Shown here: positions 1 to 18,299 of the stretch, one piece after another
Numbering within the stretch: the first letter of the stretch is position 1
Layout of the letters: the number at the start of each line of letters is the position of its first letter
Origin: Pseudomonadota bacterium
GTDB lineage: Bacteria > Pseudomonadota > Gammaproteobacteria > Xanthomonadales > Rhodanobacteraceae
Direction of reading: 5' to 3'
Assembly: GCA_048498135.1 (NCBI GenBank)
Contig: JBEHYO010000001.1
Coordinates: forward strand, 45,022-109,021
DNA: 64,000 nucleotides
The notes under the pieces: generated by a model
The model's database searches: none
The model's input: only the letters and a program-made list of their open reading frames with translations
Told to the model about the DNA's origin: nothing
Translations under genes and position numbers: made by a program

Positions 1-1824
1 CGCGTGCGCGAGCAATCGTACGAAGCGCTGGTCGCCGATCCGGACGGCGAATCGCGCGCGCTGCTCGCCTTCGCCGGTCTCGCGTTCGATCCGGCCGTGC
101 TGCGCTTCCATGAAGCCGGACGCAGCGTACGCACCGCGAGCGCCGCGCAGGTGCGCGAGCCATTGCGCGCCGACACCGCGCGCAGCGCCGCCTACGCCGA
201 CCTGCTCGACCCGCTGCGCCGCATGCTCGCGGCGCGCGAAGACGCGCCGGCCGTCGCATCGGATGAAGCGCGCATCGCCGCCGCGACGCAGCGCGGCGAG
301 CGCGTGCAGGGCCTCGATCCCGACCTCGCGCGCGACGTGCTGCGCGCCGCCGCGCTGCTCGGCAGCGGACGTCCCGACGATGCCGCGCCGCTCGTCGAAC
401 GCGCGCGTGCCGCCGCACCCGCGCACGCCGAAGTGCTGCGCCTGTCGGGCACGCTCGACAGCGCCCGGGGCCGCCACGCCGAAGCGATCGCCGCGCTTCG
501 CAGCGCCGACGCAGCGAAGCCCGGCGACGCCTTGATCCTCAACACGCTCGGCGCGGCCGAGGCCGCCGCCGGCGAAACCGATCGCGCGCTCGCGACGTTC
601 GTGCGCGCAGCCGCGGCCGATCCGCGCTTCGCCGGCGCCCGCTACAACCTCGGCACGCTGCTGGCGACACGCGGCGACGTCGATGCCGCGCGGGCCGCGT
701 TCGAGGAAGCCGTCGCGATCGATCCCGCCTTCACGCCCGCGCGCGTCGCGCTCGCCGGCGTGCTCATTCGTCTCGACCGCACCGACGAGGCGAAGGCAGC
801 GCTCCGCGCCGCGCTCGCCGGCACGCCCGCGCCCGCCGCCTGGGAAATGCTCGCGGAGATCGCTGCCGGCGAGCTCACCGCCGCCGAGCGCGGCGCGCTC
901 GAAGACGAATACCGGCGCCCGCGACGTTCCACCCAGGAGCGCGCCGGACTGGCCTATGCGCTGGCGAACGTGCTCGAGAGTCGGGCGCAGTATCAGGAAG
1001 CGTTCGCGCTCTTCGCCGAAGCGAACGCGCTGCGCCGGCGCGACATCGAATGGGACGCCGCGCGCCACGCGCGCCGTTGCGAGCGCATCCTCGAAGCGTT
1101 CCCTGCGCATCCCGAGATCACGTCGACGTCGACGCTCGGCGAAGGCTGCATCTTCGTGCTCGGCCTGCCCGACGACGTCGCGGCCGCCGTCGCGCGCGTG
1201 CTGCGCGCGCATCCGTCGATCGGCCATGCGGGCGCACCGGATCCGGCGCGCCGGATCGCCGCCGAATCCGACCGGCGCCAGCAGACGTTCGCGCAGTGGG
1301 CGCGGCAGGCGACGCCCGCCGAGTGGCTGCGCCTCGGCCGCGAATACCTGGCCGAGCCGACGCCAGCCGGCGCAGGCTCGCATCGACTGTTCGATGCCGC
1401 CGCGCTTCGCCCCGAGCTTGCCGGCGCAATCGCGGCGATGCTGCCGGCCGCGCGCTTCGTCGCGATCGGCAACGACGCGCTCGAAAGCTGCTGGTCGTGC
1501 TTCCGCGCCGATTTTCACGACGGCGAACGCTACAGCGCCGATCTGGCCGAGCTCGCGCACTATCATCGCGACTTCGAACGGCTGCTCGCGCGCTGGCAGG
1601 CGCGATTCGGCGCTCGCATCCACCGCGTCGATGCCGATGCGTTGCGCAGCGATTCCACGGGCGCGATCGCGGCACTCTTCGCGCACTGCGGCCTCGATGC
1701 CGCCGACGCCGCGCCGTCGGCCGATCTGCTGCGCCTTCGCGCGCATCCCGAAGCGCGTGTCTACGGCGATCTTCTGAAGCCTCTCGCGCGCATGCTCGCC
1801 GCGCAGCCCGCCGAGAACGCGTAG
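1..1824 (+). CDS. TPR/sulfotransferase-family protein, 5'-partial: the C-terminal tail of an upstream sulfotransferase module is fused in frame to a second, motif-degenerate TPR + sulfotransferase-like module
   Basis: The frame is open from base 1 (ORF track 4..1824). The first ~75 aa (YEALVADPDGE...FDPAVLRFHEAGRSVRTASAAQVREPLRADTARSAAYADLLDPLRRML) match the C-terminal ends of the five downstream paralogs. No stop follows. The frame continues into TPR-like repeats (HAEVLRLSG..., YNLGTLLATRGDVDAARAAFEEAVAIDP) and then a sulfotransferase-like half with altered motifs: GLPDDVAAAV instead of LPRSGSTL, and IGNDALESCWSCF instead of RRDPVETCLSCF. Confidence 0.75.
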   Translation, partial: RVREQSYEALVADPDGESRALLAFAGLAFDPAVLRFHEAGRSVRTASAAQVREPLRADTARSAAYADLLDPLRRMLAAREDAPAVASDEARIAAATQRGERVQGLDPDLARDVLRAAALLGSGRPDDAAPLVERARAAAPAHAEVLRLSGTLDSARGRHAEAIAALRSADAAKPGDALILNTLGAAEAAAGETDRALATFVRAAAADPRFAGARYNLGTLLATRGDVDAARAAFEEAVAIDPAFTPARVALAGVLIRLDRTDEAKAALRAALAGTPAPAAWEMLAEIAAGELTAAERGALEDEYRRPRRSTQERAGLAYALANVLESRAQYQEAFALFAEANALRRRDIEWDAARHARRCERILEAFPAHPEITSTSTLGEGCIFVLGLPDDVAAAVARVLRAHPSIGHAGAPDPARRIAAESDRRQQTFAQWARQATPAEWLRLGREYLAEPTPAGAGSHRLFDAAALRPELAGAIAAMLPAARFVAIGNDALESCWSCFRADFHDGERYSADLAELAHYHRDFERLLARWQARFGARIHRVDADALRSDSTGAIAALFAHCGLDAADAAPSADLLRLRAHPEARVYGDLLKPLARMLAAQPAENA

Positions 1825-1827
1825 ACG

Positions 1828-3459
1828 ATGATCGCAGGCGGCAAGCCGACGCGCACGTTCGCGAACCTGCCCGACGCCGCGCACGCGCAGGCGGGAGATC
1901 GCCTGAGCGGCCTCTCGGCCGACGAGCGCGCCGCGATCGTCGAGGCCTCGCAGCGCATTTCGCGCGGCGAGCTCGGCGTCGCCGAGCAGATGCTGCGCGG
2001 CATCCTCGCGGCGCATCCCGATCACACCGAGACGCTGCGCATGCTGGCGGTCGCATACCAGATCGGCGGCCACACGGGCGAAGCGATCGGCGTCGTGCGG
2101 TACGCGCAGCGCTCGAATCCGTCCGATGCGCTGCTGATGAACACGCTCGGCTCGCTGCTGCAGAGCGCCGGCGACATCGCCGGCGGCGGCGCGGCGTTCC
2201 GGCGCGCCTGCGAGCTCGATCCGAATCTCGCGTCGGCGTGGACGAATCTCGGCACGAACCTGTCGATGCAGTTCGACGTGCGCCAGGCGGAATCCGCCTT
2301 CGCGCGCGCCGTCGAGGTGCAGCCGACAGATGTCGCCGCGCGCATCCTGCATGCGAACGCGCTGAACGCGCTCGGGCGCACCGACGAAAGCATCGCCGAG
2401 TTCCGCGCTGCGATCGCGACGAATCCGCGCTCCGCGCACGCATGGGCGGGGCTGGCCGAGATCAAGACCGTCGCTCTCACGGCCGCTGACGTCGCCGCGC
2501 TCGAACGACTCCTCGCCGATCCCGCCCTCGGCGAGGAAGAGCGCGCCGTCGCGGGCTTCGCGCTCGGACGCGGCCTCGAGGGCCAGCAGCGTTACCCCGA
2601 CGCATTCGCCGCGTTCGCGCGCGCGAATGCCGCGATGCGCAGCCTCATGCCGTGGGATTCGACCGCGCATTCGGCCTACGTCGCCTCGATCGCCGCCGTG
2701 TTCGAAACGTCGCCAGCGATCGCGGGCGACGCCACGCGCGGCAGCGACGTCGTCTTCGTGATCAGCCTCCCGCGCGCGGGCTCGACGCTCGTCGAGCAGA
2801 TCCTCGGCGCGCATCCCGACGTCGAAGGCGCCGGCGAGCTCAACGAGCTCGCGGTCATCGTGCAGGAGGAATCCTCGCGCCGCGGCGAGCCGTATCCCGA
2901 CTGGATCGGCAAGGCGACGCCGGACGATTTCGAGCGCCTCGGCGCGCAGTATCTCGAACGGACCGCGCGCTGGCGCACGACGCGGCGCGTGCACGTCGAC
3001 AAGGCCGTGTTCAACTTTGCATTCGTCGGCGCGATCGCGGCGATGCTGCCCGGCGCGCGCATCGTCAACGTGCGGCGCGATCCGCTCGAGACGGGCTGGT
3101 CGTGCTTCAAGCAGAGCTTCGCGCGCGGCCAGCAGGTGTTCTCGTACGCGCTCGACGACATCGGCGCGTACTGGATCGACTACGACCGGCTGATGTTCTT
3201 CTGGCACGCGCGCTTCCCCGGGCGCATCTACGATCTCTCCTACGAAGCGCTCGTCGCCGCACCCGAGGCCGAGATCCGCCGCCTCCTCGATTTCTGCGCG
3301 CTGCCGTTCGCGGCGAGCTGCCTCAGGTTCCACACGAGCGCGCGCGTCGTCCGCACCGCGAGCGCAGCGCAGGTGCGCCAGCCGATGCGCGTCGATACCG
3401 CGCGCGCCGCGAGCTACGGCGCGCTGCTCGATCCGTTGCGCCGCGCGCTCGGCATGTAG
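1828..3459 (+). CDS. TPR repeat-containing sulfotransferase family protein (paralog 2)
   Basis: ATG lies 3 nt after the previous stop. N-terminal TPRs (HPDHTETLRML..., AWTNLGTNL...). C-terminal sulfotransferase motifs SLPRAGSTLVEQILGAHP, RRDPLETGWSCFKQSF and VRTASAAQVRQPMRVDTAR. Confidence 0.85.
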   Translation: MIAGGKPTRTFANLPDAAHAQAGDRLSGLSADERAAIVEASQRISRGELGVAEQMLRGILAAHPDHTETLRMLAVAYQIGGHTGEAIGVVRYAQRSNPSDALLMNTLGSLLQSAGDIAGGGAAFRRACELDPNLASAWTNLGTNLSMQFDVRQAESAFARAVEVQPTDVAARILHANALNALGRTDESIAEFRAAIATNPRSAHAWAGLAEIKTVALTAADVAALERLLADPALGEEERAVAGFALGRGLEGQQRYPDAFAAFARANAAMRSLMPWDSTAHSAYVASIAAVFETSPAIAGDATRGSDVVFVISLPRAGSTLVEQILGAHPDVEGAGELNELAVIVQEESSRRGEPYPDWIGKATPDDFERLGAQYLERTARWRTTRRVHVDKAVFNFAFVGAIAAMLPGARIVNVRRDPLETGWSCFKQSFARGQQVFSYALDDIGAYWIDYDRLMFFWHARFPGRIYDLSYEALVAAPEAEIRRLLDFCALPFAASCLRFHTSARVVRTASAAQVRQPMRVDTARAASYGALLDPLRRALGM

Positions 3460-3535
3460 CGCCGCGCCGGCGCCCGGCTGGACAAAAGCGGCTCCAGCGG
3501 CAATTCTTGCCGGCACGTTCGTCCCGATACCCACG

Positions 3536-5173
3536 ATGACCACCTCCGCAAGCGCCGGCAGACCGGCTCCCGCCGACGATGCCGCGGCAGCGCGATTCGA
3601 TCGCGCCGAAGGCCTTTCCGAAAGCGGGCGTCGCCTCCTGCAGCAGGCGGCCGAAAGCATCCGCCAGCGCCAGCCCGATGCTGCCGAGGCGCATCTCGCC
3701 TCCGTCGGCGCGCTGGCGCCTGCGCATCCGGAAGTGCTGCGCCTGCGCGCGCTCGTCGCGCAGATCCGCGGCAAGCACGAAGACGCGGTGACGCTCCTTC
3801 GCCGCGTCGTCGAAGCGACGCCCTACGATGCGCTGCCGTGGAACAACATCGGCACCTCGTTCGCCGAAACCGGCGATCTCGACGCGGCGATCGCGGCGTT
3901 CAGGCGCGCGGCCGAGCTCGCGCCCCGGCGCGCCGCGCCGTGGTTCAATCTCGGCCGCGCGCTCGACAGCGCCGGCCGCATCGACGAGGCGCACGAGGCG
4001 CTGACGAACGCGCTTGCGCACGATCCCGGGCACGTCGCCGCACGCTTGACGCTCGGGCGCGTCCTGCAGTTCATGGGCCGCATCGACGAAGCGGAAGCCG
4101 AGTTCCGGCGCGTGCTCGCCGCGCATCCGGATTCCGCGCTCGCCTGGTATGGCCTTTCGACCGTGCGCACGGCGCGCTTCGACGCCGACGAGACGCGCAC
4201 GATCGAGCGCGTCTACGGGCGCGGCGATCTCACGCGCGAGGAGCGCATCGGCGCGGGCTTCGCGCTCGCCAAGGCGCTCGAAGATCAGCAGCGCTACGGC
4301 GAAGCATTTGCCGTGCTGACCGCGGCGAACGCGACCAAGCGCCGCACGCTGCTGTGGGATGCGCGCGCCTTCGCGTATCACACGACCAATATCGCGACGG
4401 CGTTCGCCAGACCCGCCGCGACCAGCGCGCCGCCCGATCTCGGCAGCGAAGTCATCTTCGTGTTCGGCCTGCCGCGCTCGGGCTCGACGCTGGTCGAGCA
4501 GATTCTCGCCGCGCATCCCTCGGTGACCGGCGCGAACGAGCTCGACGAGCTCAATCTCGTCATCGCCGACGAATCGCGCCGGCGCCGCAAGCCGTTCCCG
4601 ATCTGGGTGCCGGACGCCGGTCCCGGCGACTGGGAGCGGCTCGGCCGCGACTATCTCGCGCGCACGGCGCGCTGGCGCGAGGAGCGCCCGGTCTTCACCG
4701 ACAAGGGCCTCACGAACTGGGGTTACGTCGGCGCGCTCGAAGCGATGCTGCCCGGCGCGCGCCTCGTGAACACGCGCCGCGATCCGGTCGAGAACTGCCT
4801 CGCGTGTTTTCGCCAGTCGTTCGCGCGCGAGCTCGGCTTCACGTACGACCTGGCCGAGATGGCCGCGTTCTGGCGCGACTACGACCGTCTCATGCGGCTC
4901 TGGCAGCAGCGCTATCCCGGCCGGATCCACGACGTCGTTCATGAGCGGCTCGTCGTGGAACCGGAAGCCGAGATCCGCGCGCTGCTCGCATCGTGCGGCC
5001 TCGCGTTCGACGCGGCGTGCCTGCGCTTCCACGAGGTCGAGCGCAACGTGCGCACCGCGAGCGCGGCGCAGGTGCGCCAGCCGCTCCGCGCCGACACCGC
5101 GCGCGCGTCCCGCTACGGCACGCTGCTCGATCCGCTGCGCGCGATGCTGGCCGAGGCGCCCGCGCCGCACTGA
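3536..5173 (+). CDS. TPR repeat-containing sulfotransferase family protein (paralog 3)
   Basis: 545-aa ORF. TPRs (HPEVLRLRALVAQIRGKHEDA, PWFNLGRALDSAGRIDEA). Motifs GLPRSGSTLVEQILAAHP, RRDPVENCLACFRQSF and VRTASAAQVRQPLRADTAR. Confidence 0.85.
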   Translation: MTTSASAGRPAPADDAAAARFDRAEGLSESGRRLLQQAAESIRQRQPDAAEAHLASVGALAPAHPEVLRLRALVAQIRGKHEDAVTLLRRVVEATPYDALPWNNIGTSFAETGDLDAAIAAFRRAAELAPRRAAPWFNLGRALDSAGRIDEAHEALTNALAHDPGHVAARLTLGRVLQFMGRIDEAEAEFRRVLAAHPDSALAWYGLSTVRTARFDADETRTIERVYGRGDLTREERIGAGFALAKALEDQQRYGEAFAVLTAANATKRRTLLWDARAFAYHTTNIATAFARPAATSAPPDLGSEVIFVFGLPRSGSTLVEQILAAHPSVTGANELDELNLVIADESRRRRKPFPIWVPDAGPGDWERLGRDYLARTARWREERPVFTDKGLTNWGYVGALEAMLPGARLVNTRRDPVENCLACFRQSFARELGFTYDLAEMAAFWRDYDRLMRLWQQRYPGRIHDVVHERLVVEPEAEIRALLASCGLAFDAACLRFHEVERNVRTASAAQVRQPLRADTARASRYGTLLDPLRAMLAEAPAPH

Positions 5174-5221
5174 GCCGGGCGTTTGCTAAGCTCGCGCTCC
5201 GACATTTCGACCGATTCGACG

Positions 5222-6859
5222 ATGAGCCTTCCCGAAACCGAGGCGCCGCCCCAGGCGACGCGCGATGCGGACGCGCCGGCGCAGCTCGACGTGCGCTTCG
5301 CCGACTTGCCGCTGCGCGCGCAACGACTCCTGCGCGATGCGCGGCGCGCCCTCGACGCACGCGACATGCGGCAGGCCGATGCGCTGCTGGAGCGCGGCAA
5401 GAGCTGGGCCGGCGATCATCCGGAATACCTTCGCCTGTTCGCGATCGCGCGCCAGCTGCAGGGCCGCCCCGCCGAGGCGGTCGCGGCGCTGCGCCGCGCG
5501 CTCGAAATACGGCCGGGCGACGCGCTCCTGCTGATGAACCTCGGCACCGCGCTGCGCGGCGCGGGCGATCTCGACGCGGCGGTCGTCGCGCTGCGCCGCG
5601 CCTGCGAGCTCGCGCCCGACCTTGCTGCCGCCTGGTACAACCTCGGCCGCACGCTCGGCCAGGCCGGGCGCACCGGCGAGGGACACGAGGCCTACGAACG
5701 TGCGCTCCGCCTCGATCCCGGTCACGTCCGCGCGCGCATCGGCCTCGCCGACACGCTGCGCACGTTCGGCCGCATCGACGACGCCGCGAAGGAATACCGC
5801 AGCGTGCTCGGCAAGCCGGGCTCGATGCAGGCGTGGCTGCGCATCGCGAACATGAAGACGGTGCGCTTCACGGCCGAGGAGACGAAGGACCTCGAGCGGC
5901 TCTTCGCGATGCCTGGCACGAGCGACGACGATCGCGTCGTCGTCGGCTTCGCGCTCGCCAAGGCGCTCGAGGACGCGAACCGCTATCCCGAAGCGTTCAC
6001 CGTGCTCAGCACCGCGAATGCGATCAAGCGCCGCCACGTGCAGTGGGACGCGCACCAGTTCAGCGATCGCATCGACGGCATCATGAAGGCGTTCGCGCAG
6101 CCGCCCGCGAGCGCGTCGCCGCCCGACCTCGGCCACGAAGTCATCTTCATCGTGAGCCTGCCGCGCTCGGGCTCGACGCTGACCGAGCAGATCCTCGCCT
6201 CGCATCCCGACGTCGAAGGCGCCAACGAGCTGCCCGATCTCGGCAACGTGCTCGAAGCGGAATCCAGGCGCACCGGCCTCGAGTTTCCGGACTGGGTGCC
6301 GAAGGCGACGCCGGAGGACTGGCGCCGCATGGGCGAGTCGTACCTCGAGCGCACCGCGCGCTTTCGCCGCGAACGCGGCCGTTCCACGGACAAGGCGCTT
6401 TCGAATTGGCGCGTCATCGGCGCCGCGATGGCGATGCTGCCCGGCGCACGCTTCGTGAATTGCCGGCGCGATCCGGTCGAGACGTGCCTGTCGTGCTTCC
6501 GCCAGGTGTTCTCGCGCGGCCAGGCGTTCACGTACGACCTTTCCGATCTCGCCGCCTACTGGCGCGACTACGACCGCACGATGCGCTTCTGGCATCCGCG
6601 CTATCCGCACGCGGTGCGCGATCAGGTCTATGAAAAGCTGCTCGCGGATCCCGAAGCTGAGACGCGCGCGTTGCTGCAGTTCTGCGGGCTCGAATGGGAT
6701 CCGGCCTGCCTTCGCTTCTACGAGACGCCGCGCCACGTGCGCACGATCAGCGCCGCGCAGGTGCGCGAGCCGCTGCGCGGCGACACCGCGCGCGCGCCGC
6801 TGTATCGCGAACTATTGACGCCGCTGCGCCTCGCACTCGGTATCCGCCGAGAGCAATGA
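5222..6859 (+). CDS. TPR repeat-containing sulfotransferase family protein (paralog 4)
   Basis: The ORF track frame is 5183..6859 with a TTG start. The first ATG is at 5222 (MSLPETEAPP...). Motifs HPEYLRL, AWYNLGRTLGQAGR, SLPRSGSTLTEQILASHP, RRDPVETCLSCFRQVF and VRTISAAQVREPLRGDTAR. The start is ambiguous (5183 or 5222). Confidence 0.8.
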   Translation: MSLPETEAPPQATRDADAPAQLDVRFADLPLRAQRLLRDARRALDARDMRQADALLERGKSWAGDHPEYLRLFAIARQLQGRPAEAVAALRRALEIRPGDALLLMNLGTALRGAGDLDAAVVALRRACELAPDLAAAWYNLGRTLGQAGRTGEGHEAYERALRLDPGHVRARIGLADTLRTFGRIDDAAKEYRSVLGKPGSMQAWLRIANMKTVRFTAEETKDLERLFAMPGTSDDDRVVVGFALAKALEDANRYPEAFTVLSTANAIKRRHVQWDAHQFSDRIDGIMKAFAQPPASASPPDLGHEVIFIVSLPRSGSTLTEQILASHPDVEGANELPDLGNVLEAESRRTGLEFPDWVPKATPEDWRRMGESYLERTARFRRERGRSTDKALSNWRVIGAAMAMLPGARFVNCRRDPVETCLSCFRQVFSRGQAFTYDLSDLAAYWRDYDRTMRFWHPRYPHAVRDQVYEKLLADPEAETRALLQFCGLEWDPACLRFYETPRHVRTISAAQVREPLRGDTARAPLYRELLTPLRLALGIRREQ

Positions 6860-6863
6860 CCGC

Positions 6864-8531
6864 ATGGCCGACGAACGTACCGGGAGCGCGACACCGTCGA
6901 ACAGGCCGTGGCAGGCCAACGTTCGCATCGACCGCGCAGCCGTGCCGGCCGACCGCGCGATGAATCCGCGCATCGCCGGGCTGCCGCAGCGCGCGCAGAG
7001 GCTTTTCGTCCGCGCCGAACGCTGGATCGAGCGGCGCGAGTTCGACGTCGCCGAGCGCATGCTGCGCGAAGCGCTCGACGCCGCGCCGGGCCACGCCGAG
7101 GTGTTGCGGCTGCTGGCCGTCACGCAGCACGTGCGCCAGCGCTATCCGCAGGCGATCGAGCTGTTGCGCCGTGCCGAGGCCGCGCAGCCGGCCGACGCGC
7201 TGATCCAGAACAATCTCGGCAGCGCGCTCGCCGAAATGCGCGACATGGACGGCGCAATCGCCGCATTCCGCCGCGCGACCGAGCTTGCACCCGAGATTCC
7301 GACGTCGTGGTTCAACCTCGGCAAAGCCTACGAGGCGACGCTGCGTCACGACGACGCCGAAGCGGCGTATGCACGAGCGATCGCCGTCGATCCGGACGGC
7401 TTCCCGGCCTACGAGCAGCGCGGCAAAGCGCTCCGCGCGATGGGCCGCATCGACGAAGCCGCGGCCCAGTTCCGTCGCGCGATCGAGCTCGCGCCGACAT
7501 CGGCCGAAGCGTGGGCCGGCCTCGCCGGGCTCGACGCATCGAAGCTCGACGATGGCGATGTCGCGCGGATCGCGGCGCTTTATGCGCGCCGCGACCTCAC
7601 GACATCCTCGCATTGCCTGTTCGGCCTTGCCTACGCGCTCGCGCTCGAAGCGCGCGGCCGCTATCGGGAGGCGTTCGACACGACGCTTGCCGTGCACGCG
7701 ATCCGTCGCCGGCAGAACGGCTGGAACGCGGCCGACGCGAGCCGCGTCGTCGACGACATCGCGGATGCGTTTGCCGCACCGGCAGCCGGCGCCGGCGATG
7801 CGTCGCTCGGCAGCGAGGTGATCTTCATCGTCGGCATGCCGCGCTCGGGCTCCACGCTCGCCGAGCAGATTCTCGCCGCGCACTCGCAGGTGCAGGGCGC
7901 GGGCGAGCTGAGCGCATTGCCGGACATCATCCGCGAGGAATCGGCACGCCGCGGCGTCGATTTCCCGCATTGGGTCGACGATGCGACGCCGGACGACTGG
8001 TCGCGACTCGGCCGCGAATACCTTGCACGCACGGCGCGCTGGCGCACGACGCACGCGCGTTCCACCGACAAGAACCTCCAGAACTGGCAGCTCGTCGGCG
8101 CGATCCGCGCCATGTTGCCGGGCGCACGCATCGTCGATTGCCGGCGCGACGCGCTCGAAGCCGCGTGGAGCGCCCTCAAGCTCCAGTACGGCAACGTGCT
8201 GCCGTTCACCTGCGGCATCGACGAGATCGCGAGCTGGCGACGCGACTACGAGCGGCTGATGCGCCACTGGGATGCGATCGCGCCCGGCGCGGTGCTGCGC
8301 TTCGAGTACGAGGCGCTTGTCGCCGAGCCTGACGCACGCATCCGCGCATTGCTCGATTTCTGCGTCCTTCCGTTCGATGCGGCGTGCCTCGCGTTCCACG
8401 ACGTCCAGCGCGATGTGCACACGGCGAGCGCGGCGCAGGTCCGTTCGCCGCTGCGTCGCGATACCGCGCGCGCGGAGCGCTACGGCGCGGTGCTGGATCC
8501 GCTCAGGGCCGCGCTCGGATCGCCTGCGTGA
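6864..8531 (+). CDS. TPR repeat-containing sulfotransferase family protein (paralog 5, divergent 3' motif)
   Basis: ATG lies 4 nt after the previous stop. Motifs GHAEVLRLLAV, SWFNLGKAYEA, GMPRSGSTLAEQILAAHS and VHTASAAQVRSPLRRDTAR. The second PAPS-type motif is altered (RRDALEAAWSALKLQY). Confidence 0.85.
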   Translation: MADERTGSATPSNRPWQANVRIDRAAVPADRAMNPRIAGLPQRAQRLFVRAERWIERREFDVAERMLREALDAAPGHAEVLRLLAVTQHVRQRYPQAIELLRRAEAAQPADALIQNNLGSALAEMRDMDGAIAAFRRATELAPEIPTSWFNLGKAYEATLRHDDAEAAYARAIAVDPDGFPAYEQRGKALRAMGRIDEAAAQFRRAIELAPTSAEAWAGLAGLDASKLDDGDVARIAALYARRDLTTSSHCLFGLAYALALEARGRYREAFDTTLAVHAIRRRQNGWNAADASRVVDDIADAFAAPAAGAGDASLGSEVIFIVGMPRSGSTLAEQILAAHSQVQGAGELSALPDIIREESARRGVDFPHWVDDATPDDWSRLGREYLARTARWRTTHARSTDKNLQNWQLVGAIRAMLPGARIVDCRRDALEAAWSALKLQYGNVLPFTCGIDEIASWRRDYERLMRHWDAIAPGAVLRFEYEALVAEPDARIRALLDFCVLPFDAACLAFHDVQRDVHTASAAQVRSPLRRDTARAERYGAVLDPLRAALGSPA

Positions 8532-10111
8532 CGAGCGCGTCGCCGATCGTTTCGCACGGCCGGCGCAGCGGACTTTCGTCCGAGGTCGCGCGCCTGCTCG
8601 ATCGGGCGGGCGGCTTTCTCGACCGTCGCGATGCGGCAGGCGCCGCGCCGCTGATCGCCGGCGCGCTCGCGCTGGCGCCCGACCATCCCGAAGTGCTCCG
8701 GCTCGCCGCGGTGGCGGCCGTGCTCGAAGGCCGGCCGGCCGAGGCCGTCGCGGCGCTGCGGCGCGCGCTGGCCGCGCGGCCCGACGATGCGCTGCTGTAC
8801 AACAATCTCGGCAGCGCGCTCGCCGCGGCCGGCGACGGCGACGGCGCGATCGAGGCGTTCCGCCATGCATCCGCGCTCGCGCCGGGGCTCGCCGCGTCCT
8901 GGTACAACCTCGGCAAGACGCTGAAGGTGCGGGGCGAATCGGCCGCGGCCGACGACGCGCTCGCGCGCGCGGTCGCCCTCGCACCCGGGCACGTGCCCGC
9001 ACGGATCGTCCGGGGCGACAACCTGAAGGCGCTCGGCCGCATCGACGAGGCCGCAGCCGCGTACCGCGCGGCGATCGCGCGCGATCCGATCGCGGCCCAT
9101 GCTTGGTGGGGACTGGCGAACCTCAAGACCATCCGCTTCGACGCCGCCGACGTCGCCGCGCTCGAACGCGCGTTCGCCCAGTCGCGCGCCCACGACCGGC
9201 CCGCGCTCGGATTCGCGCTCGCCAAGGCGCTGGAGGACCAGGATCGCTACGCCGACGCATTCGCGGTGCTCGAAGCGGCGAATGCGCTGCGGCGGGATCA
9301 GCAGCGCTGGGACGCGGCCGGATTCCGCCGCGAGGTGGACGCCATCGTCGCGGCGTTCTCGACGCCCGCGCCCGCGCCGGCGTCGGCGCTCGGAAGCGAG
9401 GTCATCTTCATCGTCAGCCTGCCGCGCGCGGGATCGACGCTGGTCGAGCAGATCGTCGCGGCCCATGCCGAGGTGGAGGGTGCCGGCGAGCTGCCGGATC
9501 TTTCGATCGTGATCGAGGAGGAATCGCGCCGGCGCGGCACGCCGTTTCCCGGCTGGGTCGGCGAGGCGGACGCGGACGACTGGCGGCGGCTCGGCGAGCG
9601 CTATCTCGAGCGCACGGCGCGCTGGCGCCGACGGCGACCGCGGTTTACGGACAAATCGCTGCTCAATGTGCCCTACGTCGGCGCCGCCGCGGCGATGCTG
9701 CCGGGGGCGCGCTTCATCGATTGCCGGCGCGATCCGGTCGAGACGGCGCTCTCGTGCTACCGGCAATGGTTCGCGCAGGGCCAGGCCTGGAGCTACGCGG
9801 TCGACGACATCGCCGCGCACGCGCAGGGACACGAGCGGCTCATGGCGGCCTGGCGCGCGCGCATCCCGGCGGCTTTGCACACGATCGTCCACGAAACGCT
9901 CCTGGACCGGCCGGAAGCCTCGATCCGGGCCCTTCTCGACTTCTGCGGCCTCGACTTCGACGCGGGCTGCCTCGAGTTTCACCGGAGCGCCCGCAGCGTG
10001 CGGACGGCGAGCGCCGCGCAGGTCCGCGAGCCCCTCCGGCGGGATACCCGCCGAGCCGATCACTATGGCGCGCTGCTCGATCCGTTGCGTCGCGCACTGG
10101 ATGCCTCATGA
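8528..10111 (+). CDS. TPR repeat-containing sulfotransferase family protein (paralog 6)
   Basis: Same frame as ORF 8384..10111. GTG at 8528 overlaps the TGA of paralog 5 (GTGA), a translational-coupling layout. Motifs HPEVLRLAAV, SWYNLGKTLKVRG, SLPRAGSTLVEQIVAAHA, RRDPVETALSCYRQWF and VRTASAAQVREPLRRDTRR. Confidence 0.8.
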   Translation: MTSASPIVSHGRRSGLSSEVARLLDRAGGFLDRRDAAGAAPLIAGALALAPDHPEVLRLAAVAAVLEGRPAEAVAALRRALAARPDDALLYNNLGSALAAAGDGDGAIEAFRHASALAPGLAASWYNLGKTLKVRGESAAADDALARAVALAPGHVPARIVRGDNLKALGRIDEAAAAYRAAIARDPIAAHAWWGLANLKTIRFDAADVAALERAFAQSRAHDRPALGFALAKALEDQDRYADAFAVLEAANALRRDQQRWDAAGFRREVDAIVAAFSTPAPAPASALGSEVIFIVSLPRAGSTLVEQIVAAHAEVEGAGELPDLSIVIEEESRRRGTPFPGWVGEADADDWRRLGERYLERTARWRRRRPRFTDKSLLNVPYVGAAAAMLPGARFIDCRRDPVETALSCYRQWFAQGQAWSYAVDDIAAHAQGHERLMAAWRARIPAALHTIVHETLLDRPEASIRALLDFCGLDFDAGCLEFHRSARSVRTASAAQVREPLRRDTRRADHYGALLDPLRRALDAS

Positions 10112-10114
10112 AAC

Positions 10115-10154
10115 GCAACTAGAAGTTGCATGAAGCATCGCGTGGAGCTTCATG
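10115..10154 (+). terminator. Two adjacent hairpins right after the last sulfotransferase gene (possible operon terminator or RNA structure)
   Basis: GCAACT-aga-AGTTGC (10115..10129) is followed by CATGAAGC-N10-GCTTCATG (10129..10154). They start 4 nt after the stop at 10111. There is no strong U-tract, so the call is weak. Confidence 0.3.
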
Positions 10155-10493
10155 AAGCGTTTCGATTAGACGTTCAGGCAATTCAGAGTTCACGACGGCG
10201 CGCGTTCTGTCGCGCGCGCGATTCCCGATGCTGCGCGCCGGCTCGGATTCGAGCGATTCGATGGGCTTTTTTGCGCCGGTTTTGGCGCAACGACAGCGTA
10301 TTCGCCCCGTGGTGCACTGCGGTATCGAAAGCAGTCTCGCGGCACCCGGCTCGTACATGTTCGCAGCGCTTGAAACCGGGCGCGACAACGGGTGTCGAAA
10401 GAGGTTCAAAAGTCGTTGCAAATCTTGTTCGCACTCTGTTACGTTCCCCGCGCTGTACCGCCCATCACCAACTCATGGGGAGTAGTGACGCTC

Positions 10494-13400
10494 ATGCGCA
10501 AGAGCACAATAGCAATTGGTATTGCGGCGGCCCTGTCAACACAAGCGTTCGTCACCGCGACGAATGCCGATGCGGCCGTCAAAGGTAAGCACCCGCAGAA
10601 AGCCTCCGGGCCCGTCCACCAAACCGCCCACTTCAAGTACCCGAATCATTCGAGCCCGAGTGGCAGCACCGTTCTGTATGACCAGTCGGGCACTGCAGAA
10701 ATCGGTTTCCCGTCCCAGAACTTCGAATCCTCCTACGATGCGTTCGATTCGGCTGGCGCCGACGACTTCGTCGTCTCGGATGCCAACGGCTGGGATGTCA
10801 GTGCATTCAATTTCCAGATTCTCGGCACGGGCGATCCGACGCTCGCGAACTGGACCATCAACGTCTATCCGGACGCGGGCGGCCTGCCCGGCGCCTCGAC
10901 GGTCTGCAGCTACAACGCGATCCCGGGCGTCCTCGACGGCTCGCTCTCGAGCGTCAGCGTCGCACTGCCGAGCACGTGCCATCTCGATCCCGGAACCTAC
11001 TGGTTCTCGGAAGTCGCCGAGCTCGACTTCGCGGTCGGCGGCCAGGTGTTCTGGATGGCCGATTCGCGTTCGCCGACACCCGGCGCCGACCTTGCCTGGG
11101 AAAATCCGGGCGACGGCTTCGGCCTCGGCTGCACGACGTGGACCGACAACGCAAGCTGCGGCGCCGGTAGCGGCCTCGTCACGGCGCTGTTCCAGGTCGT
11201 CGGCGCGGTAGGCACGGGCGGCGGCACGTGCGGTGCGGGTCAGCTCTGCCTCGTCTCGACGGTCGGTACCGACCTCTCGGCGGGCGCGTGCGGCACCGCC
11301 GACACGATCGATGCGACGAACGGCGATCAGCTGAACTTCTGCTACACGATCACGAACAACACCGGCGTCACGCTGAACTACCACACGCTGCAGAACAACG
11401 TCGACGGCACGCTATTCACGCTGTTGAACCAGGCGGTTCCGGACGGCGGCACGTTCCAGTACAACCACATCGAGACAGTCAGCGCGACCAACACGTGGAA
11501 CTCGACGTGGACGGCGCAGGACGTTCCGCCGGGCTACGCGCCGACGGTCGAGACCGGCGGCGGCGGCGGTTGCGCCGATCGCATCTTCGCGGACGGCTTC
11601 GACGGCACGCCGCTGCCCTGTCCGGGCGGCAGCAACTTCGTCGACATCTCCGGCACGGGCACTGCGCTCGGCAACGGCGATGACGAGGCGATCGCGGTCA
11701 CGATGCCGTTCTCGTTCAATTACTACGGCACGTCGAACAACAACCTCTGCGTCGACAACAACGGCTTCATCCTGTTCAACACGACGAACTGCCCGACGTT
11801 CGGTCTCTATACGAACGTCTCGCTGCCGACGACCTCGTTCACCGCGCCGGCGATCATGCCGCTGTGGGACGACTTCGACAGCTCTTCGGGCAACGTGTAC
11901 ACGGATATCCGCGGCACCTCGCCGAACCGTCAGTTCATCGTCGAGTGGTACCAGCGCACTCACTACTCCGGCAACACCGATTCGGCAACGTTCGAAGTGA
12001 TCTTCAACGAAGCCGACGGCACGCTGCAGTTCGAGTACGCCGACGTGGATTACACCGGTGCCAACAACTCGTCGGGCGATCCCGACGTGTGCAACGGCGG
12101 TGTCTGCGCGACGATTGGCCTGCAGAACGATCCGACGCTGTACAACCAGTTCTCGGCGTTCGAAGCTTCGGTGACGAACAACTCGGGCATCCTCTGGACC
12201 CCGACGAACCCGCAGGTCTTCACCGGCACCGATTCGGTCACGGTCAACGTCGGCCAGCCGACGATCGTCGTCAACAACGGCGCGCCGATCACGGGCACGG
12301 TACCGGCAGGCGGGACGAACTCGATCCAGTTCCCGATCGCCAACACCGGCAACCGCGATCTCAACTGGTCGCTGACCGAAGCCGGCCCTGCGAATCTGCA
12401 CTTCCCGCCGCCGGGCACGCGCTTTGCGATGCCGATGGGCGATCCGTCGCTCACCACGTCGCGTCCCGTTCCGCTGGGTCTGCGTCATCCGGACACGAAG
12501 CCGCACCACCCGCTCAGCATCCCGGGCCATGTCAACGGCACGGTGCCGATGTTCGCGGCCGACATCTACAACAACCAGTTCGTCAAGCTCGACGCGCTCA
12601 ACCCCGGAACGGTGAACACGGTCGCTGCGACCGACGGCACGCCGTGGACCGGCGGTGCGTTCGTCGACGGCGACTTCTCGAAGTTGTACGTCATCTCGGG
12701 CAGCTTCGGCGCCAATCCGGATACGTTCGCGTCGGTCGACACGACGACGGGTGCCGTGACCACGATCGGCAACGCGAACAGCGGCGGCCTTGGCTGGAAC
12801 GGCATGGCGTATGACACGACGACCGGCACGATGTACGCGGTCGCGGGTTGTCCGTCGGGCTCGCACCTCTACACCGTCGACATCAACACCGGTGCGGTGA
12901 CCGAGGTCGGCACGATGACGAACGAGGGCTGCTCGGTGTCGATCGCGATCGACTCGGCCGGCCAGATGTACTCGGTCGACATCGTCAACGACGCGCTGTA
13001 TGCGGTCGACAAGACCAACGCGACCGATTCGCTGATCGGCAGCATCGGCTTCAACGCGAACTATGCGCAGGAAATGACCTTCGACCTGTCGACGGACATC
13101 CTGTACTACGCCGCGTTCAACCTCGATCTGTTCGGCGACTTCATGTACACGGTCGACACCACCGACGGCACGACGAGCCTCATCGGCCAGGTCACCGGCG
13201 GCTTCGCCGAGCTCGACGGCATGGGCATCGAGACCGCGGGTGGTCCGTGCGCACAGCCGCAGGATCTGCCGTGGCTCTCGCTCAGCCCGCTCACCGGCAC
13301 GACGGCACCCGGCGATTCCACGCCGATCACGGCGTCGCTCGACGGTACGGGCGCGTCCGATGGCGACGTGCTCTCCGGCACGGTCTGCGCGACGAGCAAC

Positions 13401-13910
13401 GATCCGGCCAACCGCACGGTTGCCACGCCGATCAACGTTACGGTCGGTACGGGCGGCGGCGGTTCGGTCATCGACAGCGGCCCCATCAACCTGGCGGTGA
13501 ATCCGGACTTCACGGGTCTCTACATCAACTGGCTGACGGGCGACTGGTGCTCGTCGAGCGGCGGTCCGTGCGATGGTTCGGGCGGTTACGACTTCAATCC
13601 GTACAGCTCGACGCTGACGTTCTTCTGGCCGAGCGACAACAGCGGCAACTGCGTATCGGATGGGACCTCGTGCCTCATCCTGAACTCGGGCGCCACGATC
13701 GGTCCGGCTTCGACGTTCGGCACCAGCAACTCGGCGAACTTCGTCGGCGGCAACACGACCGGCTTCCTCGGATTCTCGTTCATCAACGCGAACACGAGCA
13801 CGGTCAACTACGGCTACGCGAAGTTCACGACGACGGCCGGAACGGGTTATCCGGCGACCATCGTCGAATACTGGTATGACAACTCCGGCGCGGCGATCAA
13901 CATCCCGTAA
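10494..13910 (+). CDS. Large Sec-secreted multidomain protein (1,138 aa) of unknown function
   Basis: ATG at 10494 is preceded by GGGGAG about 11 nt upstream. Signal peptide MRKSTIAIGIAAALSTQAFVTATNADA. An internal segment (AIMPLWDDFDSSSGNVYTDIRG...FIVEWYQRTHY...TFEVIFNEADGTLQFEY) resembles nidogen-like NIDO domains. It also has two Ig-like 'SNDP' modules, a repeated 'LY(A/T)VD...G' beta-propeller-like region, an ADRIFADGFDG linker and G-rich linkers. Composition is Gly/Thr/Asn/Asp-rich, typical of extracellular proteins. Confidence 0.8.
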   Translation: MRKSTIAIGIAAALSTQAFVTATNADAAVKGKHPQKASGPVHQTAHFKYPNHSSPSGSTVLYDQSGTAEIGFPSQNFESSYDAFDSAGADDFVVSDANGWDVSAFNFQILGTGDPTLANWTINVYPDAGGLPGASTVCSYNAIPGVLDGSLSSVSVALPSTCHLDPGTYWFSEVAELDFAVGGQVFWMADSRSPTPGADLAWENPGDGFGLGCTTWTDNASCGAGSGLVTALFQVVGAVGTGGGTCGAGQLCLVSTVGTDLSAGACGTADTIDATNGDQLNFCYTITNNTGVTLNYHTLQNNVDGTLFTLLNQAVPDGGTFQYNHIETVSATNTWNSTWTAQDVPPGYAPTVETGGGGGCADRIFADGFDGTPLPCPGGSNFVDISGTGTALGNGDDEAIAVTMPFSFNYYGTSNNNLCVDNNGFILFNTTNCPTFGLYTNVSLPTTSFTAPAIMPLWDDFDSSSGNVYTDIRGTSPNRQFIVEWYQRTHYSGNTDSATFEVIFNEADGTLQFEYADVDYTGANNSSGDPDVCNGGVCATIGLQNDPTLYNQFSAFEASVTNNSGILWTPTNPQVFTGTDSVTVNVGQPTIVVNNGAPITGTVPAGGTNSIQFPIANTGNRDLNWSLTEAGPANLHFPPPGTRFAMPMGDPSLTTSRPVPLGLRHPDTKPHHPLSIPGHVNGTVPMFAADIYNNQFVKLDALNPGTVNTVAATDGTPWTGGAFVDGDFSKLYVISGSFGANPDTFASVDTTTGAVTTIGNANSGGLGWNGMAYDTTTGTMYAVAGCPSGSHLYTVDINTGAVTEVGTMTNEGCSVSIAIDSAGQMYSVDIVNDALYAVDKTNATDSLIGSIGFNANYAQEMTFDLSTDILYYAAFNLDLFGDFMYTVDTTDGTTSLIGQVTGGFAELDGMGIETAGGPCAQPQDLPWLSLSPLTGTTAPGDSTPITASLDGTGASDGDVLSGTVCATSNDPANRTVATPINVTVGTGGGGSVIDSGPINLAVNPDFTGLYINWLTGDWCSSSGGPCDGSGGYDFNPYSSTLTFFWPSDNSGNCVSDGTSCLILNSGATIGPASTFGTSNSANFVGGNTTGFLGFSFINANTSTVNYGYAKFTTTAGTGYPATIVEYWYDNSGAAINIP

Positions 13911-13935
13911 TCGCACCGGAACCTGAAGCACTTGC

Positions 13936-13967
13936 AGAGGCGGGGGAAACCCCGCCTCTTTTTCTTT
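13936..13967 (+). terminator. Rho-independent terminator of the large secreted-protein gene
   Basis: AGAGGCGGGG-GAAA-CCCCGCCTCT, a perfect 10-bp GC-rich stem with a GNRA loop, is followed by TTTTTCTTT. It starts about 26 nt after the stop at 13910. Confidence 0.75.
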
Positions 13968-14058
13968 GCGCGGCCGGTTCATGCAGGCGCGCGCCGCAGG
14001 CGAACGCGCGCTCCCGCCTACGCATGCCCCGCACGACCGTGCTTGATATGCTCGCGCG

Positions 14059-14724
14059 ATGAGCGACATGTCCACGCCCCCCCGCATCGCCGAGCGCTTC
14101 CGCGGCTTCCTGCCCGTCATCGTCGATGTCGAGACCGGCGGCTTCGACGTCGAGCGCCATGCGCTGCTCGAGATCGCGGCCGTCGTCGTGCGCATGGACG
14201 AGGAAGGGATGATCCATCCCGAGCCCGTCGTTTCGACGCACGTGCAGCCGTTCGAAGGCTCCGAGCTCGATCCGCGCTCGATGGAGATCACCGGCATCGA
14301 CCCCCACCACCCGTTTCGCGCCGCGCTGCCGGAACGGCAGGCGCTCGACCACATCTTCGGGCCGGTTCGCCGGGCCGTGCGCGATGCCGGCTGCCAGCGC
14401 GCGATCCTGGTCGGGCACAACGCCGCGTTCGACGTCGCGGTGCTGAACGCGGCGATCCGGCGCACGCAGCACAAGAAGAGCCCGTTCCACCCGTTCAGCT
14501 GCTTCGACACCGTGACGCTCGGCGGCCTCGCCTACGGCCAGACCGTGCTGAGCCGCGCCGTCGAGGCATCGGGACAGCGCTGGGACAGCCGCGAGGCGCA
14601 CGCGGCGGTCTACGACGCCGAGCGCACGGCCGAGCTCTTCTGCAGCGTCGTGAACCGCTGGAGGGAGATGAACGAGCTCTGGCGCAACCGTCAGATCAAG
14701 GCGTACACGGCGCTCCCGACTTGA
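14059..14724 (+). CDS. rnt: Ribonuclease T
   Basis: DEDDh exonuclease motifs ([36 protein letters not shown]). Full-length similarity to RNase T. Confidence 0.9.
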
Positions 14725-14755
14725 TCGCAGCGCGCCGCGGGCGCATCTTGCATGC

Positions 14756-15037
14756 ATGCCGATCTACGAATACATGCCCAAGAGCGCCGGCTGTGCGACC
14801 TGCCGCAGCGGCATCGAGCGCCTGCAGAAGCTCTCCGATCCGCCGCTCACCGCATGCCCGGACTGCGGCGCCCCGCTCGAACGCGTGATCAATGCGCCGC
14901 AGGTTGTCGCCGGCCAGTCGCACGTGCTGCGCGAAGGACACCTCGCCAAGCACGGCTTCACGCAATACCGGAAGGTCGGCAAGGGCAAGTACGAAAAGAC
15001 CGCCGGAAACGGCCCGCCGACGATCAGCGACGACTGA
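14756..15037 (+). CDS. FmdB-family zinc-ribbon putative regulatory protein
   Basis: MPIYEYMPKSAGCATC...CPDCGAPLERV: the characteristic MP(I)YEY start and a CxxC...CxxC zinc ribbon. Confidence 0.8.
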   Translation: MPIYEYMPKSAGCATCRSGIERLQKLSDPPLTACPDCGAPLERVINAPQVVAGQSHVLREGHLAKHGFTQYRKVGKGKYEKTAGNGPPTISDD

Positions 15038-15129
15038 CCGAGCGGGCGAAATCGCGCCCGGCTTCAAGATTACGGTCACGTGAAAGCGGCTCAAGGACGT
15101 GACCTATCTCGCTGTTTTGCCTTGTGGAA

Positions 15130-15188
15130 CGGTCACATCGGCGTGTCGCGGCGCCGGTTCTGTCATCTCTGCGAAACAAATCACTCAT
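15130..15188 (+). promoter_or_regulatory. Putative Pho-box region upstream of pstS
   Basis: Pho-box-like heptamers: CGGTCAC (15130), an exact CTGTCAT (15160) and CACTCAT (15182, 22 bp later). CGGTCAC also occurs at 15073, with an inverted copy near 15098. The region lies ~90-145 nt upstream of the pstS GTG. Spacing is not the canonical 11-bp tandem. Confidence 0.35.
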
Positions 15189-15274
15189 CGTTCTGAAACC
15201 TCGCGGGCCTAAAAAACGGCCCGGGGACGGCATCGGCCGCCCGCGATTTTTCCCACTCGCTCGAGGAGCCTCCC

Positions 15275-16300: not shown

Positions 16301-16308
16301 TCGGCGCT

Positions 16309-16422
16309 TTTCCCTTCTCCCGCCTTGCGGGAGAAGGTGCCGAAGGCGGATGAGGGCAACCTCGGAACGCCGTTCCAGAGCTGCCCTCACCCAACCCTCT
16401 CCCGCAAGCGGGAGAGGGGATT
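16309..16422. repeat. Composite palindromic (REP-like) intergenic element, copy 1 (pstS|pstC junction)
   Basis: Terminal hairpins CCTTCTCCCGC-ctt-GCGGGAGAAGG and CCCTCTCCCGC-aa-GCGGGAGAGGG flank an inner inverted pair GAGGGCA...TGCCCTC. The architecture matches the element at 19127..19228. Confidence 0.65.
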
Positions 16423-16449
16423 TCGTTTCCAGCGTTCGATCTCGAGCAC

Positions 16450-17442: not shown

Positions 17443-18299
17443 GCGCCGTCGCCGAGCGTCTCTATCGCAAGCGCCGCATCGTCAACGCGTGGAATCTCCT
17501 TGCGTCGGGCGCATGCGCGGCGTTCGGCCTGTTCTGGCTGATCTGGATCCTCTGGACGACGCTGAAGACCGGCCTCGCCGCGATGAAGCCGGCGCTCTTC
17601 TACGAGATGACGCCGCCGCCGGGCGCCGACGGCGGCATCGCGAACGCACTCTTCGGCAGCCTCATCATGAGCCTGGGCGCGATCCTGATCGGAACGCCGA
17701 TCGGCGTCGCCGCCGGCACGTATCTCGCCGAGTTCGCGAAGAAGCGCGCGATCGGCGAGACGATCCGCTTCGTCAACGACATCCTCCTGTCCGCGCCGTC
17801 GATCGTGCTCGGCCTCTTCGTGTACACGCTGGTCGTGCGCCAGACCGGGCACTTCTCGGGTTACGCCGGCTCGCTCGCGCTCGCGCTGATCGTGCTGCCG
17901 GTCGTCGTGCGCACGACCGACGAGATGCTGCAGCTCGTGCCGAGCCAGATGCGCGAGGCGGCGCTGTCGCTGGGCATCCCGCAATGGAAGGTGACGATGC
18001 AGGTGCTGTACCGCTCGGCGCTGCCGGGCATCGTCACCGGCATCCTGCTCGCGCTCGCACGCATCTCCGGCGAGACCGCGCCGCTTCTCTTCACCGCGCT
18101 CAACAACCAGTACTGGACGGCCGACCTGACGTCGCCGATGGCGAGCGTTCCGGTCGTGATCTTCCAGTATGCGATGAGCCCGTACGAATCGTGGCATGCG
18201 CTGGCCTGGGCCGGCGCGTTCGTCGTGACCGTATTCGTCCTGCTGCTCAGCGTCGTCTCCCGCGCGATACTTCTGCGCAACAAGGTGCCCAATGACTAA
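17439..18299 (+). CDS. pstA: Phosphate ABC transporter permease PstA
   Basis: The ATG overlaps the pstC stop (ATGA). [16 protein letters not shown]..., permease motif [15 protein letters not shown]. It is the last part of composite ORF 16350..18299. Confidence 0.95.

Follow-up and report, generated by a model that had tools for sequence, protein, structure and literature searches.

The DNA analysed here is a stretch of 64,000 nucleotides (nt; hereafter the window) corresponding to positions 45,022 to 109,021 of contig JBEHYO010000001.1 (assembly GCA_048498135.1), from an uncultured, soil-type member of the Rhodanobacteraceae related to Dokdonella. Positions 1-10111 of the window hold, on the + strand, six adjacent chromosomal genes in an operon-like arrangement. 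Together they form a tandem array of seven modules, here named M0 to M6, each of which combines tetratricopeptide repeats (TPRs) with a sulfotransferase domain of the PF13469 family. The array is laid out as follows (aa, amino acids; ORF, open reading frame; E, E-value of the PF13469 match).

1..1824, + strand: tail of M0 followed by M1, the 3′ part of a fusion gene for a 1081-aa protein; the left end is open in the window.
1828..3459, + strand: M2, 543 aa, TPRs and active-type sulfotransferase (E = 2e-40).
3460..3535, no strand: M2-M3 spacer, 76 nt, which aligns to the spacer between doxX and M3 in the orthologous locus L001.
3536..5173, + strand: M3, 545 aa (E = 4e-36), the module used for the structure model.
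5222..6859, + strand: M4, 545 aa from the ATG at 5222, with an alternative TTG start at 5183 (E = 4.5e-38).
6864..8531, + strand: M5, 555 aa, with a partly altered 3′-phosphate motif, RRDALEAAWSALK (E = 2.6e-39).
8528..10111, + strand: M6, 527 aa from the GTG at 8528, in an ORF open from 8384 (E = 8e-35).

All modules share one plan, in which an N-terminal TPR superhelix of about five to six repeats is followed by a helical linker and then by a PF13469 domain resembling the tyrosylprotein sulfotransferases (TPSTs). Searching each ORF against Pfam returned several TPR models for every one of the six, together with PF13469 (Sulfotransfer_3), whose gathering threshold of 27 bits was exceeded in 6/6 cases: five ORFs scored 139.8, 125.6, 132.1, 136.2 and 121.5 bits, and the M1 domain of the leftmost ORF (ORF A) reached 64.5 bits. 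An NCBIfam scan assigned the array proteins to no specific family; its matches were TPR models below threshold and a faint one to NoeE, limited to the 5′-phosphosulfate loop. The genes are separated by 3 nt, 76 nt, 9 or 48 nt and 4 nt, and the M5 stop and M6 start overlap in the sequence GTGA at 8528-8531; the L001 locus shows an identical 4-nt overlap and likewise encodes a 527-aa product. GC content at third codon positions (0.84-0.90) favours the + strand frames, and the long ORFs lying antisense to them (e.g. 3323-5170 and 6747-9002, minus strand) were set aside as shadow ORFs of high-GC DNA on account of their third-position GC and their lack of domains. No hydrophobic, signal-like core was found at the N-terminus of any module, from which the modules are predicted to be cytoplasmic and soluble. 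Thus, the common architecture of six consecutive same-strand ORFs, the operon-like junctions and the missing signal peptides, all of which had been described in a first-pass annotation of this DNA, were borne out.

In ORF A, codons 1-84 correspond to the tail of an active M0 and M1 starts at approximately nt 253, with no stop codon between the two. The remainder of M0 was recovered from a public contig, L165 (Logan SRR29760033), which is 100% identical to the window over positions 1-6170 and runs 5978 nt further left; the complete M0-M1 gene lies at 4557-7802 of that contig and encodes 1081 aa. This leftward extension established that the array consists of exactly seven modules in six genes. 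The earlier count of "at least seven" modules in an array open to the left was therefore correct, with the amendment that M0 and M1 are a single fusion protein. The exact M2 protein was found in 47 blocks of the collection of public contigs that was searched.

For comparison with proteins of known structure, a profile search of the PDB was made with the sulfotransferase half alone; full-length modules gave results swamped by TPR proteins. The top match was the sulfotransferase of CurM (CurM ST, 5.7e-10), aligning over two short stretches only, at the 5′-phosphosulfate loop and in a C-terminal segment. TPST1 and TPST2 scored 2e-9 to 2e-7, in one alignment extending over nearly the whole domain, and the PRSG, GAGE, TDK and RRD motifs of the array proteins align to residues R78, E99, K158 and R183 of TPST2. 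An AlphaFold model of M3 built on an alignment of 99 homologs had a mean confidence (predicted local distance difference test, pLDDT) of 92.6; a single-sequence run left the sulfotransferase half at pLDDT < 50. In the model, a disordered N-terminus precedes a helical TPR region with 11-12 helices between residues 29 and 208. When the model was submitted to Foldseek, its catalytic half matched TPST1 (5wrj) with a template modelling (TM) score of 0.66, and TPST1, TPST2 and a tick TPST (TM 0.55-0.66) were the sole sulfotransferases among the top 50. The TPR half matched consensus TPR (CTPR) proteins, OGT and SPINDLY, as it also did in the full-length PDB sequence search.

The catalytic set, in M3 numbering, comprises the 5′-phosphosulfate loop PR314-S-G-S-T, Glu335, Asp389-Lys390 and Arg414-Arg415-Asp416. 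R314, G316, E335, D389, K390 and R415 are invariant in 99/99 aligned relatives, and the full set is retained in six modules (M0 and M2-M6). For example, the paralog alignment shows LPRAGSTL, GAGEL, VDK and RRDP in M2, while M0, intact on L165, has LPRSGSTL, GASEL, TDK, RRDA and the C-terminal RTASAAQVR. The proposed chemistry is very probably O-sulfation dependent on 3′-phosphoadenosine 5′-phosphosulfate (PAPS), as judged from motifs and model; the acceptor is not readable from the fold. The first-pass annotation had taken the array for a bank of PAPS-dependent sulfotransferases with three sulfotransferase motifs in every module. The domain searches and the Foldseek comparison agree in assigning a fold of the TPST kind, and the pair of PAPS motifs (5′-phosphosulfate loop and 3′-phosphate motif) is present in M0, M2, M3, M4 and M6, and in M5 with an altered 3′ motif. 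The claim fails for M1.

In M1 the loop reads LPDDVAAAV where the others have LPRSGSTL; GAGE has lost its Glu and TDK its Lys, GNDA replaces RRDP, and the RTASAAQVR tail is deleted. Both the stop-free fusion to M0 and the degenerate LPD(D/A) loop are kept in L001, L085, L087, L096 and L165, and the sulfotransferase half of M1 has a ratio of nonsynonymous to synonymous substitution rates (dN/dS) of 0.28 relative to L001. Because it is conserved and under purifying selection in spite of the loss of its motifs, M1 looks like a catalytically dead module, that is, a maintained pseudo-enzyme domain permanently fused behind M0. Multi-domain members of the family usually keep catalytic residues in both sulfotransferase domains; second domains that are dead occur essentially in this lineage alone. 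An M0-type module with a partly degenerate 5′-phosphosulfate loop (LPRTEATRVERIL) was noticed in L096 (11782-13281), which suggests that modules may lose activity repeatedly in these arrays.

Identity among the paralogs is 43-55% for M2-M6 and 35-40% for M1 against the others, and it is unevenly distributed: it is 27% at the N-terminus, 47% in the TPRs, 40% in the linker and 59% in the sulfotransferase half. The L001 locus is about 80% identical and has the same seven modules. Relative to it, dN/dS is 0.14-0.38 over all modules, with values of 0.30 for M2 (78% identity), 0.24 for M5 and 0.14 for M4, the most conserved ortholog pair (91% identity; the gene called in L001 encodes 542 aa). In every ortholog pair the TPR half has a higher dN/dS than the sulfotransferase half.

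The array belongs to a very populous family. At a cut-off of E <= 1e-30, relatives of the sulfotransferase half form 12,236 clusters when grouped at 50% identity. Among the top 150 clusters, about 40% have two sulfotransferase domains, and four or five are present in some (P0121 with 2492 aa, P0131 with 2819 aa), so that polypeptides of 2-5 modules occur. A scan of one genome per species gave > 600 matches, and neighbourhoods were taken from the best 79. All of these come from Lysobacterales and neighbours, including Dokdonella, Rudaea, Dyella, Rhodanobacter, Frateuria, Tahibacter, Thermomonas, Luteimonas and Steroidobacteraceae. Two or more sulfotransferase-like genes lie within 10 kb on either side in 33 of the best 79 loci, about 10 of which have three to five. 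Seven modules is at the top of the observed range, but tandem multiplicity is a family trait: the array is less exceptional than it was taken to be when first described, arrays of 2-5 genes being frequent in Lysobacterales. The Prokaryotic Genome Annotation Pipeline (PGAP) names the homologs from Dokdonella and other Rhodanobacteraceae [quoted passage not shown] or simply "sulfotransferase". The window proteins belong to this PGAP family, whose name is purely descriptive; compared with the family at large, the array of seven modules, the fusion with a dead module and the linkage to an HvfABC cluster (see below) are features of the window lineage.

We favour, as a reading with about equal chances of being right or wrong, that the modules are PAPS-dependent sulfotransferases of the cytoplasm and that their diverged TPR halves select the clients, which would be proteins or peptides. 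Each active module would bind PAPS and transfer sulfate to a hydroxyl group; as in TPST2, Glu335 would act as base and Lys390 would stabilise the transition state. Docking of the acceptor would fall to the TPR half, in the way that OGT and SPINDLY use their TPRs, and the acceptor would most likely be an unfolded protein or peptide that is exported after its synthesis in the cytoplasm. The paralogs may serve different clients or sites, since the N-terminus, TPRs and linker diverge most and the TPR halves have the higher dN/dS. TPSTs work as dimers; for this reason the M0-M1 fusion could be a built-in pair of an active and an inactive partner mimicking the TPST dimer.

The known systems nearest to this proposal each resemble the array in part. 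TPST1, TPST2 and the tick TPST share PF13469, are the best structural match and have the aligning catalytic residues. They are type II membrane homodimers of the Golgi lumen without TPRs, whereas the window proteins are predicted to be soluble, bear TPRs and form a set of seven paralogs, one of them apparently dead. The membrane-anchored, lumenal location of TPSTs finds no counterpart in the modules, which have neither a signal nor a hydrophobic N-terminus; given their cytoplasmic location, the window proteins would not be TPST orthologs by location. RaxST of Xanthomonas oryzae, encoded in raxX-raxSTAB, is PAPS-dependent and acts in the cytoplasm, where it sulfates a ribosomal peptide ahead of the peptide's export (PMC4216712). 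It comes from the same order-level group and follows the same logic of sulfation and then export that is proposed for the array. RaxST is a single gene without TPRs, clustered with an exporter of the peptidase-type ATP-binding cassette (ABC) class, in contrast to the TPR-bearing paralogs, and no raxX-, raxA- or raxB-like gene was found in the window, L001 or L165. OGT and SPINDLY, the best natural match of the window TPR half in both sequence and fold, pair an N-terminal TPR superhelix that recruits protein substrates with a donor-dependent cytoplasmic transferase. Their catalytic domain is a GT41 glycosyl- or fucosyltransferase, so the likeness is an architectural analogy and not enzyme homology.

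To the left, as seen on L165, the array starts 158 nt 3′ of hvfC, on the same strand, directly after an HvfA/HvfB/HvfC cluster. Clusters of this bufferin type make ribosomally synthesized and post-translationally modified peptides (RiPPs) with an oxidative enzyme dependent on multinuclear non-heme iron (MNIO enzyme). The gene order is:

porin (minus strand), 141-aa precursor, MNIO enzyme, HvfC-type partner, 158-nt gap, M0-M1, M2, 76-nt gap, M3 onward.

The precursor, encoded at 2356-2781 of L165, carries a Sec signal and an EF-hand region; the motifs EGKCG and AEGSCGG are each present twice. NCBIfam models identified HvfB (432.6 bits; cut-off 360), HvfC (293.3 bits; cut-off 142) and an HvfA-type KCGExKCG domain (22.3 bits; cut-off 19.5), and no terminator-like site was seen in the gap between hvfC and M0. 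Immediately past the precursor gene, within the first part of the MNIO gene (L165, 2825-2856), is a 13-bp GC-rich hairpin whose tail contains Ts; by analogy with other RiPP clusters, it could be an attenuator letting the precursor transcript accumulate in excess.

The three genes of this left neighbour, for precursor, MNIO enzyme and DUF2063 protein, are those canonical for HvfABC/bufferin operons. Such operons canonically run straight into doxX, whereas in the window lineage 1-7 sulfotransferase modules are intercalated. When metagenome contigs were searched with the L001 MNIO enzyme, close relatives (>= 77% identity) proved to have a TPR-sulfotransferase gene directly after hvfC, namely in L085, L086, L087, L090, L093, L095, L096 and L105, as it is in L001 and L165. 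The paralog set and its number at this position vary between genomes, and doxX comes only after two to five sulfotransferase genes in L001, L093, L095 and L096. In about 45 more distant MNIO clusters hvfC is followed by doxX with no sulfotransferase. The association of hvfC with the array is tight but confined to one clade, and is effectively one evolutionary event; most of the TPR-sulfotransferase loci among the best 79 of > 600 have no MNIO neighbour. The doxX gene sits between M2 and M3 in L001 (9146-10000); in L006, L093, L095 and L096 it is found inside the array or behind it. Both the window genome and L165 lack it cleanly, with the flanking spacer retained. The window genome has lost doxX, and its M2-M3 spacer aligns to the doxX-to-M3 spacer of L001. 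Precursors of sulfotransferase-linked and unlinked clusters showed no distinguishing residue or motif. In particular, the single Tyr of the precursor was considered as a feature linked to the sulfotransferases and discarded as universal in the family and uninformative.

To the right of the array, three further features were recorded.

10410..10493, + strand: conserved non-coding block, AGTTCAAAAGTCGTTGCAAATCTTGTTCGCACTCTGTTACGTTC, kept in L001 and L006 and partly in L007.
10494..13910, + strand: gene for a 1138-aa secreted protein with a Sec signal peptide and a conserved N-terminal domain (ORF open from 10392).
13936..13959, + strand: terminator-like hairpin, a GC-rich stem of 10 bp with a run of Ts after it, the only one on the + strand in window 1-15200.

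The N-terminal domain of the secreted protein (about 250 aa) is marked by the motifs VLYDQ, SSYDAYD..ADDFVV and NPGDGFG.GCT.W. No family scored above its cut-off for the 1138-aa protein, a weak DUF4394 match being found at 855-937. Homologs are encoded directly downstream of TPR-sulfotransferase genes in at least nine loci (L001, L006, L007, L010, L012, L015, L028, L060 and L076), and the short ones (L012, L015, L076) end in an IPTL-CTERM-like anchor. The arrangement recurs in many Rhodanobacteraceae, and Dokdonella and Tahibacter, which include culturable relatives, carry such a pair of sulfotransferase and secreted-protein genes. In a neighbour-joining tree, M6 adjoins sulfotransferase genes that are paired with such homologs. 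The secreted protein is a candidate client of M6-type modules. The conserved block at 10410-10493 is possibly a separate promoter or operator. Promoter scans detected no sigma-70 consensus sites, this block included, and Rfam gave no match in it. GC content is 0.70-0.74 over the array and 0.63-0.66 over the secreted-protein gene, the RNase T gene and pstSCAB-phoU (window 1-20000).

Beyond the secreted protein, Oar-like TonB-dependent outer-membrane proteins directly adjoin family members in at least 21 loci, which makes them the commonest neighbour in the order. A second family of TonB-dependent receptors lies beside TPR-sulfotransferases in at least 15 loci, and a PDZ lipoprotein is also recurrent; genes adjoining that lipoprotein, singletons in this case, form the sister group of M3 in the tree. 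The recurrent theme of family neighbours is exported proteins, and the HvfA-type precursor with its Sec signal was counted among them in favour of protein clients.

Several observations weigh against the choice of proteins or peptides as clients. By sequence, CurM ST, whose acceptor is an acyl group on an acyl carrier protein (ACP), scores as high as the TPSTs, so that the fold alone does not fix the acceptor class. TPRs can equally serve oligomerisation or scaffolding. The Tyr of the HvfA-type precursor, which lies in the sequence D/N-L-x-x-G-Y-M, is equally present where the cluster has no sulfotransferase, and no motif is shared among the exported neighbours (TonB-dependent receptors, PDZ lipoprotein and secreted protein). 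A separate conserved block precedes the secreted-protein gene, so that co-transcription of this gene with the array is not assured, and no PAPS-supply genes (cysDN, cysC) were found in the window. In the literature searched there was no description of TPR-sulfotransferases or of MNIO enzymes with a sulfotransferase, and no demonstrated acceptor for any family member.

A possible but less probable explanation is that the modules sulfate small molecules, glycans or lipids, for instance a metabolite, a glycolipid of the envelope or a xenobiotic. In that case the TPRs would only mediate oligomerisation or complex assembly, and the paralogs would cover chemically related acceptors. Most characterised bacterial PF13469/PF00685 enzymes, such as NodH, Stf0 and CurM ST, do use non-protein acceptors; CurM ST is also the top PDB sequence match, members of the family occur in many unrelated gene contexts, and the TonB-dependent receptor neighbours could reflect the handling of an imported compound. 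Such receptors deliver to the periplasm, whereas the array enzymes have no signal peptide. CurM and OLS, the "activating" sulfotransferases, are embedded in modules of polyketide synthases (PKSs), where they sulfate a beta-hydroxyacyl-ACP. Their match to the array is restricted to the two short stretches, they are absent from the top 50 fold matches, and it is the TPSTs that match best over the whole catalytic domain, by alignment span as well as by fold. The fastest-diverging region (TPR, linker and N-terminus) is, moreover, a protein-binding scaffold. Finally, the array is not accompanied by biosynthetic, glycosyltransferase or export genes. Neither the window nor L001 has glycosyltransferase, polysaccharide-export or lipid-biosynthesis genes near the array, and the neighbour genes that typify NodH/LpsS/Stf-type polysaccharide or lipid loci are likewise not seen there. 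Attachment of a common array to a characterised pathway, such as a sulfated polysaccharide or lipid locus, had been named at the outset as something that would count against the proposed bank.

The preferred reading, in which the TPRs select protein clients, can be extended to the neighbours on both sides. The array would then stand for a class of bacterial O-sulfotransferases, acting on proteins or RiPPs, that has so far gone unrecognised and that was recruited here into an HvfABC/bufferin operon, with the EGKCG/EF-hand metallophore protein and/or the downstream secreted protein sulfated in the cytoplasm before Sec export, the paralogs assigned to different sites or clients, and M1 as a fixed dimer partner. 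Because it rests on gene linkage in a single clade, we consider this extended version doubtful.

We regard as unlikely the narrower idea that the array is a tailoring battery of the adjacent HvfABC/bufferin-type RiPP pathway, sulfating the EGKCG/EF-hand precursor or regulating its maturation before Sec export. The short same-strand gap to hvfC with no terminator-like site, the NCBIfam support for HvfB, HvfC and the HvfA-type domain, and the situation in relatives, where sulfotransferase genes of varying number and identity stand between hvfC and doxX (the usual fourth gene), all speak for it. Against this, the link is found in one clade only, where the MNIO enzymes are >= 77% identical, and is missing from the roughly 45 distant clusters; most family members have no MNIO neighbour, linked precursors show no residue or motif of their own, the window genome has no doxX, and seven modules seem excessive for a mature protein of about 110 aa. 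A survey of MNIO operons and its supplements do not mention sulfotransferases.

The copies are old, maintained paralogs under purifying selection, as had been proposed from their divergence. In the neighbour-joining tree each window module falls in its own clade with orthologs from other genomes, which argues that the copies are old, and identical or near-identical contigs were obtained from independent samples (L165, L166 and L167). An origin of the array by faulty assembly or recent amplification, or its being mostly decaying pseudogenes, can practically be dismissed: assemblers can create or collapse tandem paralogs and M1 is without its motifs, but the paralogs are merely 35-55% identical, the same sequence recurs in independent assemblies, all reading frames are intact with matching ortholog lengths and the low dN/dS given above, each paralog has separate ortholog clades, and the M1 fusion and degenerate loop are kept in five loci.

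To our knowledge, bacterial protein sulfation has so far been established for essentially one enzyme-substrate pair, RaxST and RaxX. The family described here, with its approximately 12,000 clusters, joins TPST-like catalysis to protein-binding TPRs and is uncharacterised. The family itself was already annotated; what is new is the genomic link between a TPR-sulfotransferase array and an MNIO RiPP operon. The array offers a convenient starting locus, comprising six putatively active paralogs and one natural, apparently dead one, with two candidate clients encoded beside it (the HvfA-type copper/calcium-binding precursor and the conserved secreted protein) and close relatives that vary in module number at one operon position. 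With proteins as acceptors, bacterial sulfoproteomes would have to be sought, and MNIO/bufferin biology would gain a tailoring step. Should a novel protein/RiPP class be real, protein sulfation would be a widespread bacterial post-translational modification and not a peculiarity of RaxST. If the acceptors are small molecules, the locus would be an ordinary paralog expansion.

The genes around the array comprise the HvfABC cluster, the porin, the secreted protein, RNase T, pstSCAB-phoU, rlmB and rnr. The right-hand part of this set is housekeeping in character: window 14047-19981 carries RNase T, then pstS, pstC, probably pstA, pstB and phoU, with rlmB and rnr on the minus strand. A tRNA-Leu (CAG) at 24331-24415 is the only Rfam match in the window. 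In Rhodanobacter-group genomes, homologs of MATCAP/DUF1704, a tyrosine carboxypeptidase family, directly follow pairs of TPR-sulfotransferase genes (L040, 13140-14426; L053, 11604-12881; L061, 13190-14455). Curious as this is given the possible tyrosine-directed chemistry, the arrangement was judged to be synteny shared within one genus group and was not retained as independent evidence. Further along the window, 26715-29543 encodes a large leucine-rich-repeat protein of about 940 aa, unusual for a free-living gammaproteobacterium, and 53055-55403 encodes a regulator combining Trans_reg_C with TPRs (BTAD-like). A similar regulator of 811 aa is encoded in L002 (4189-6624), near a singleton TPR-sulfotransferase and a DUF4394-like protein.

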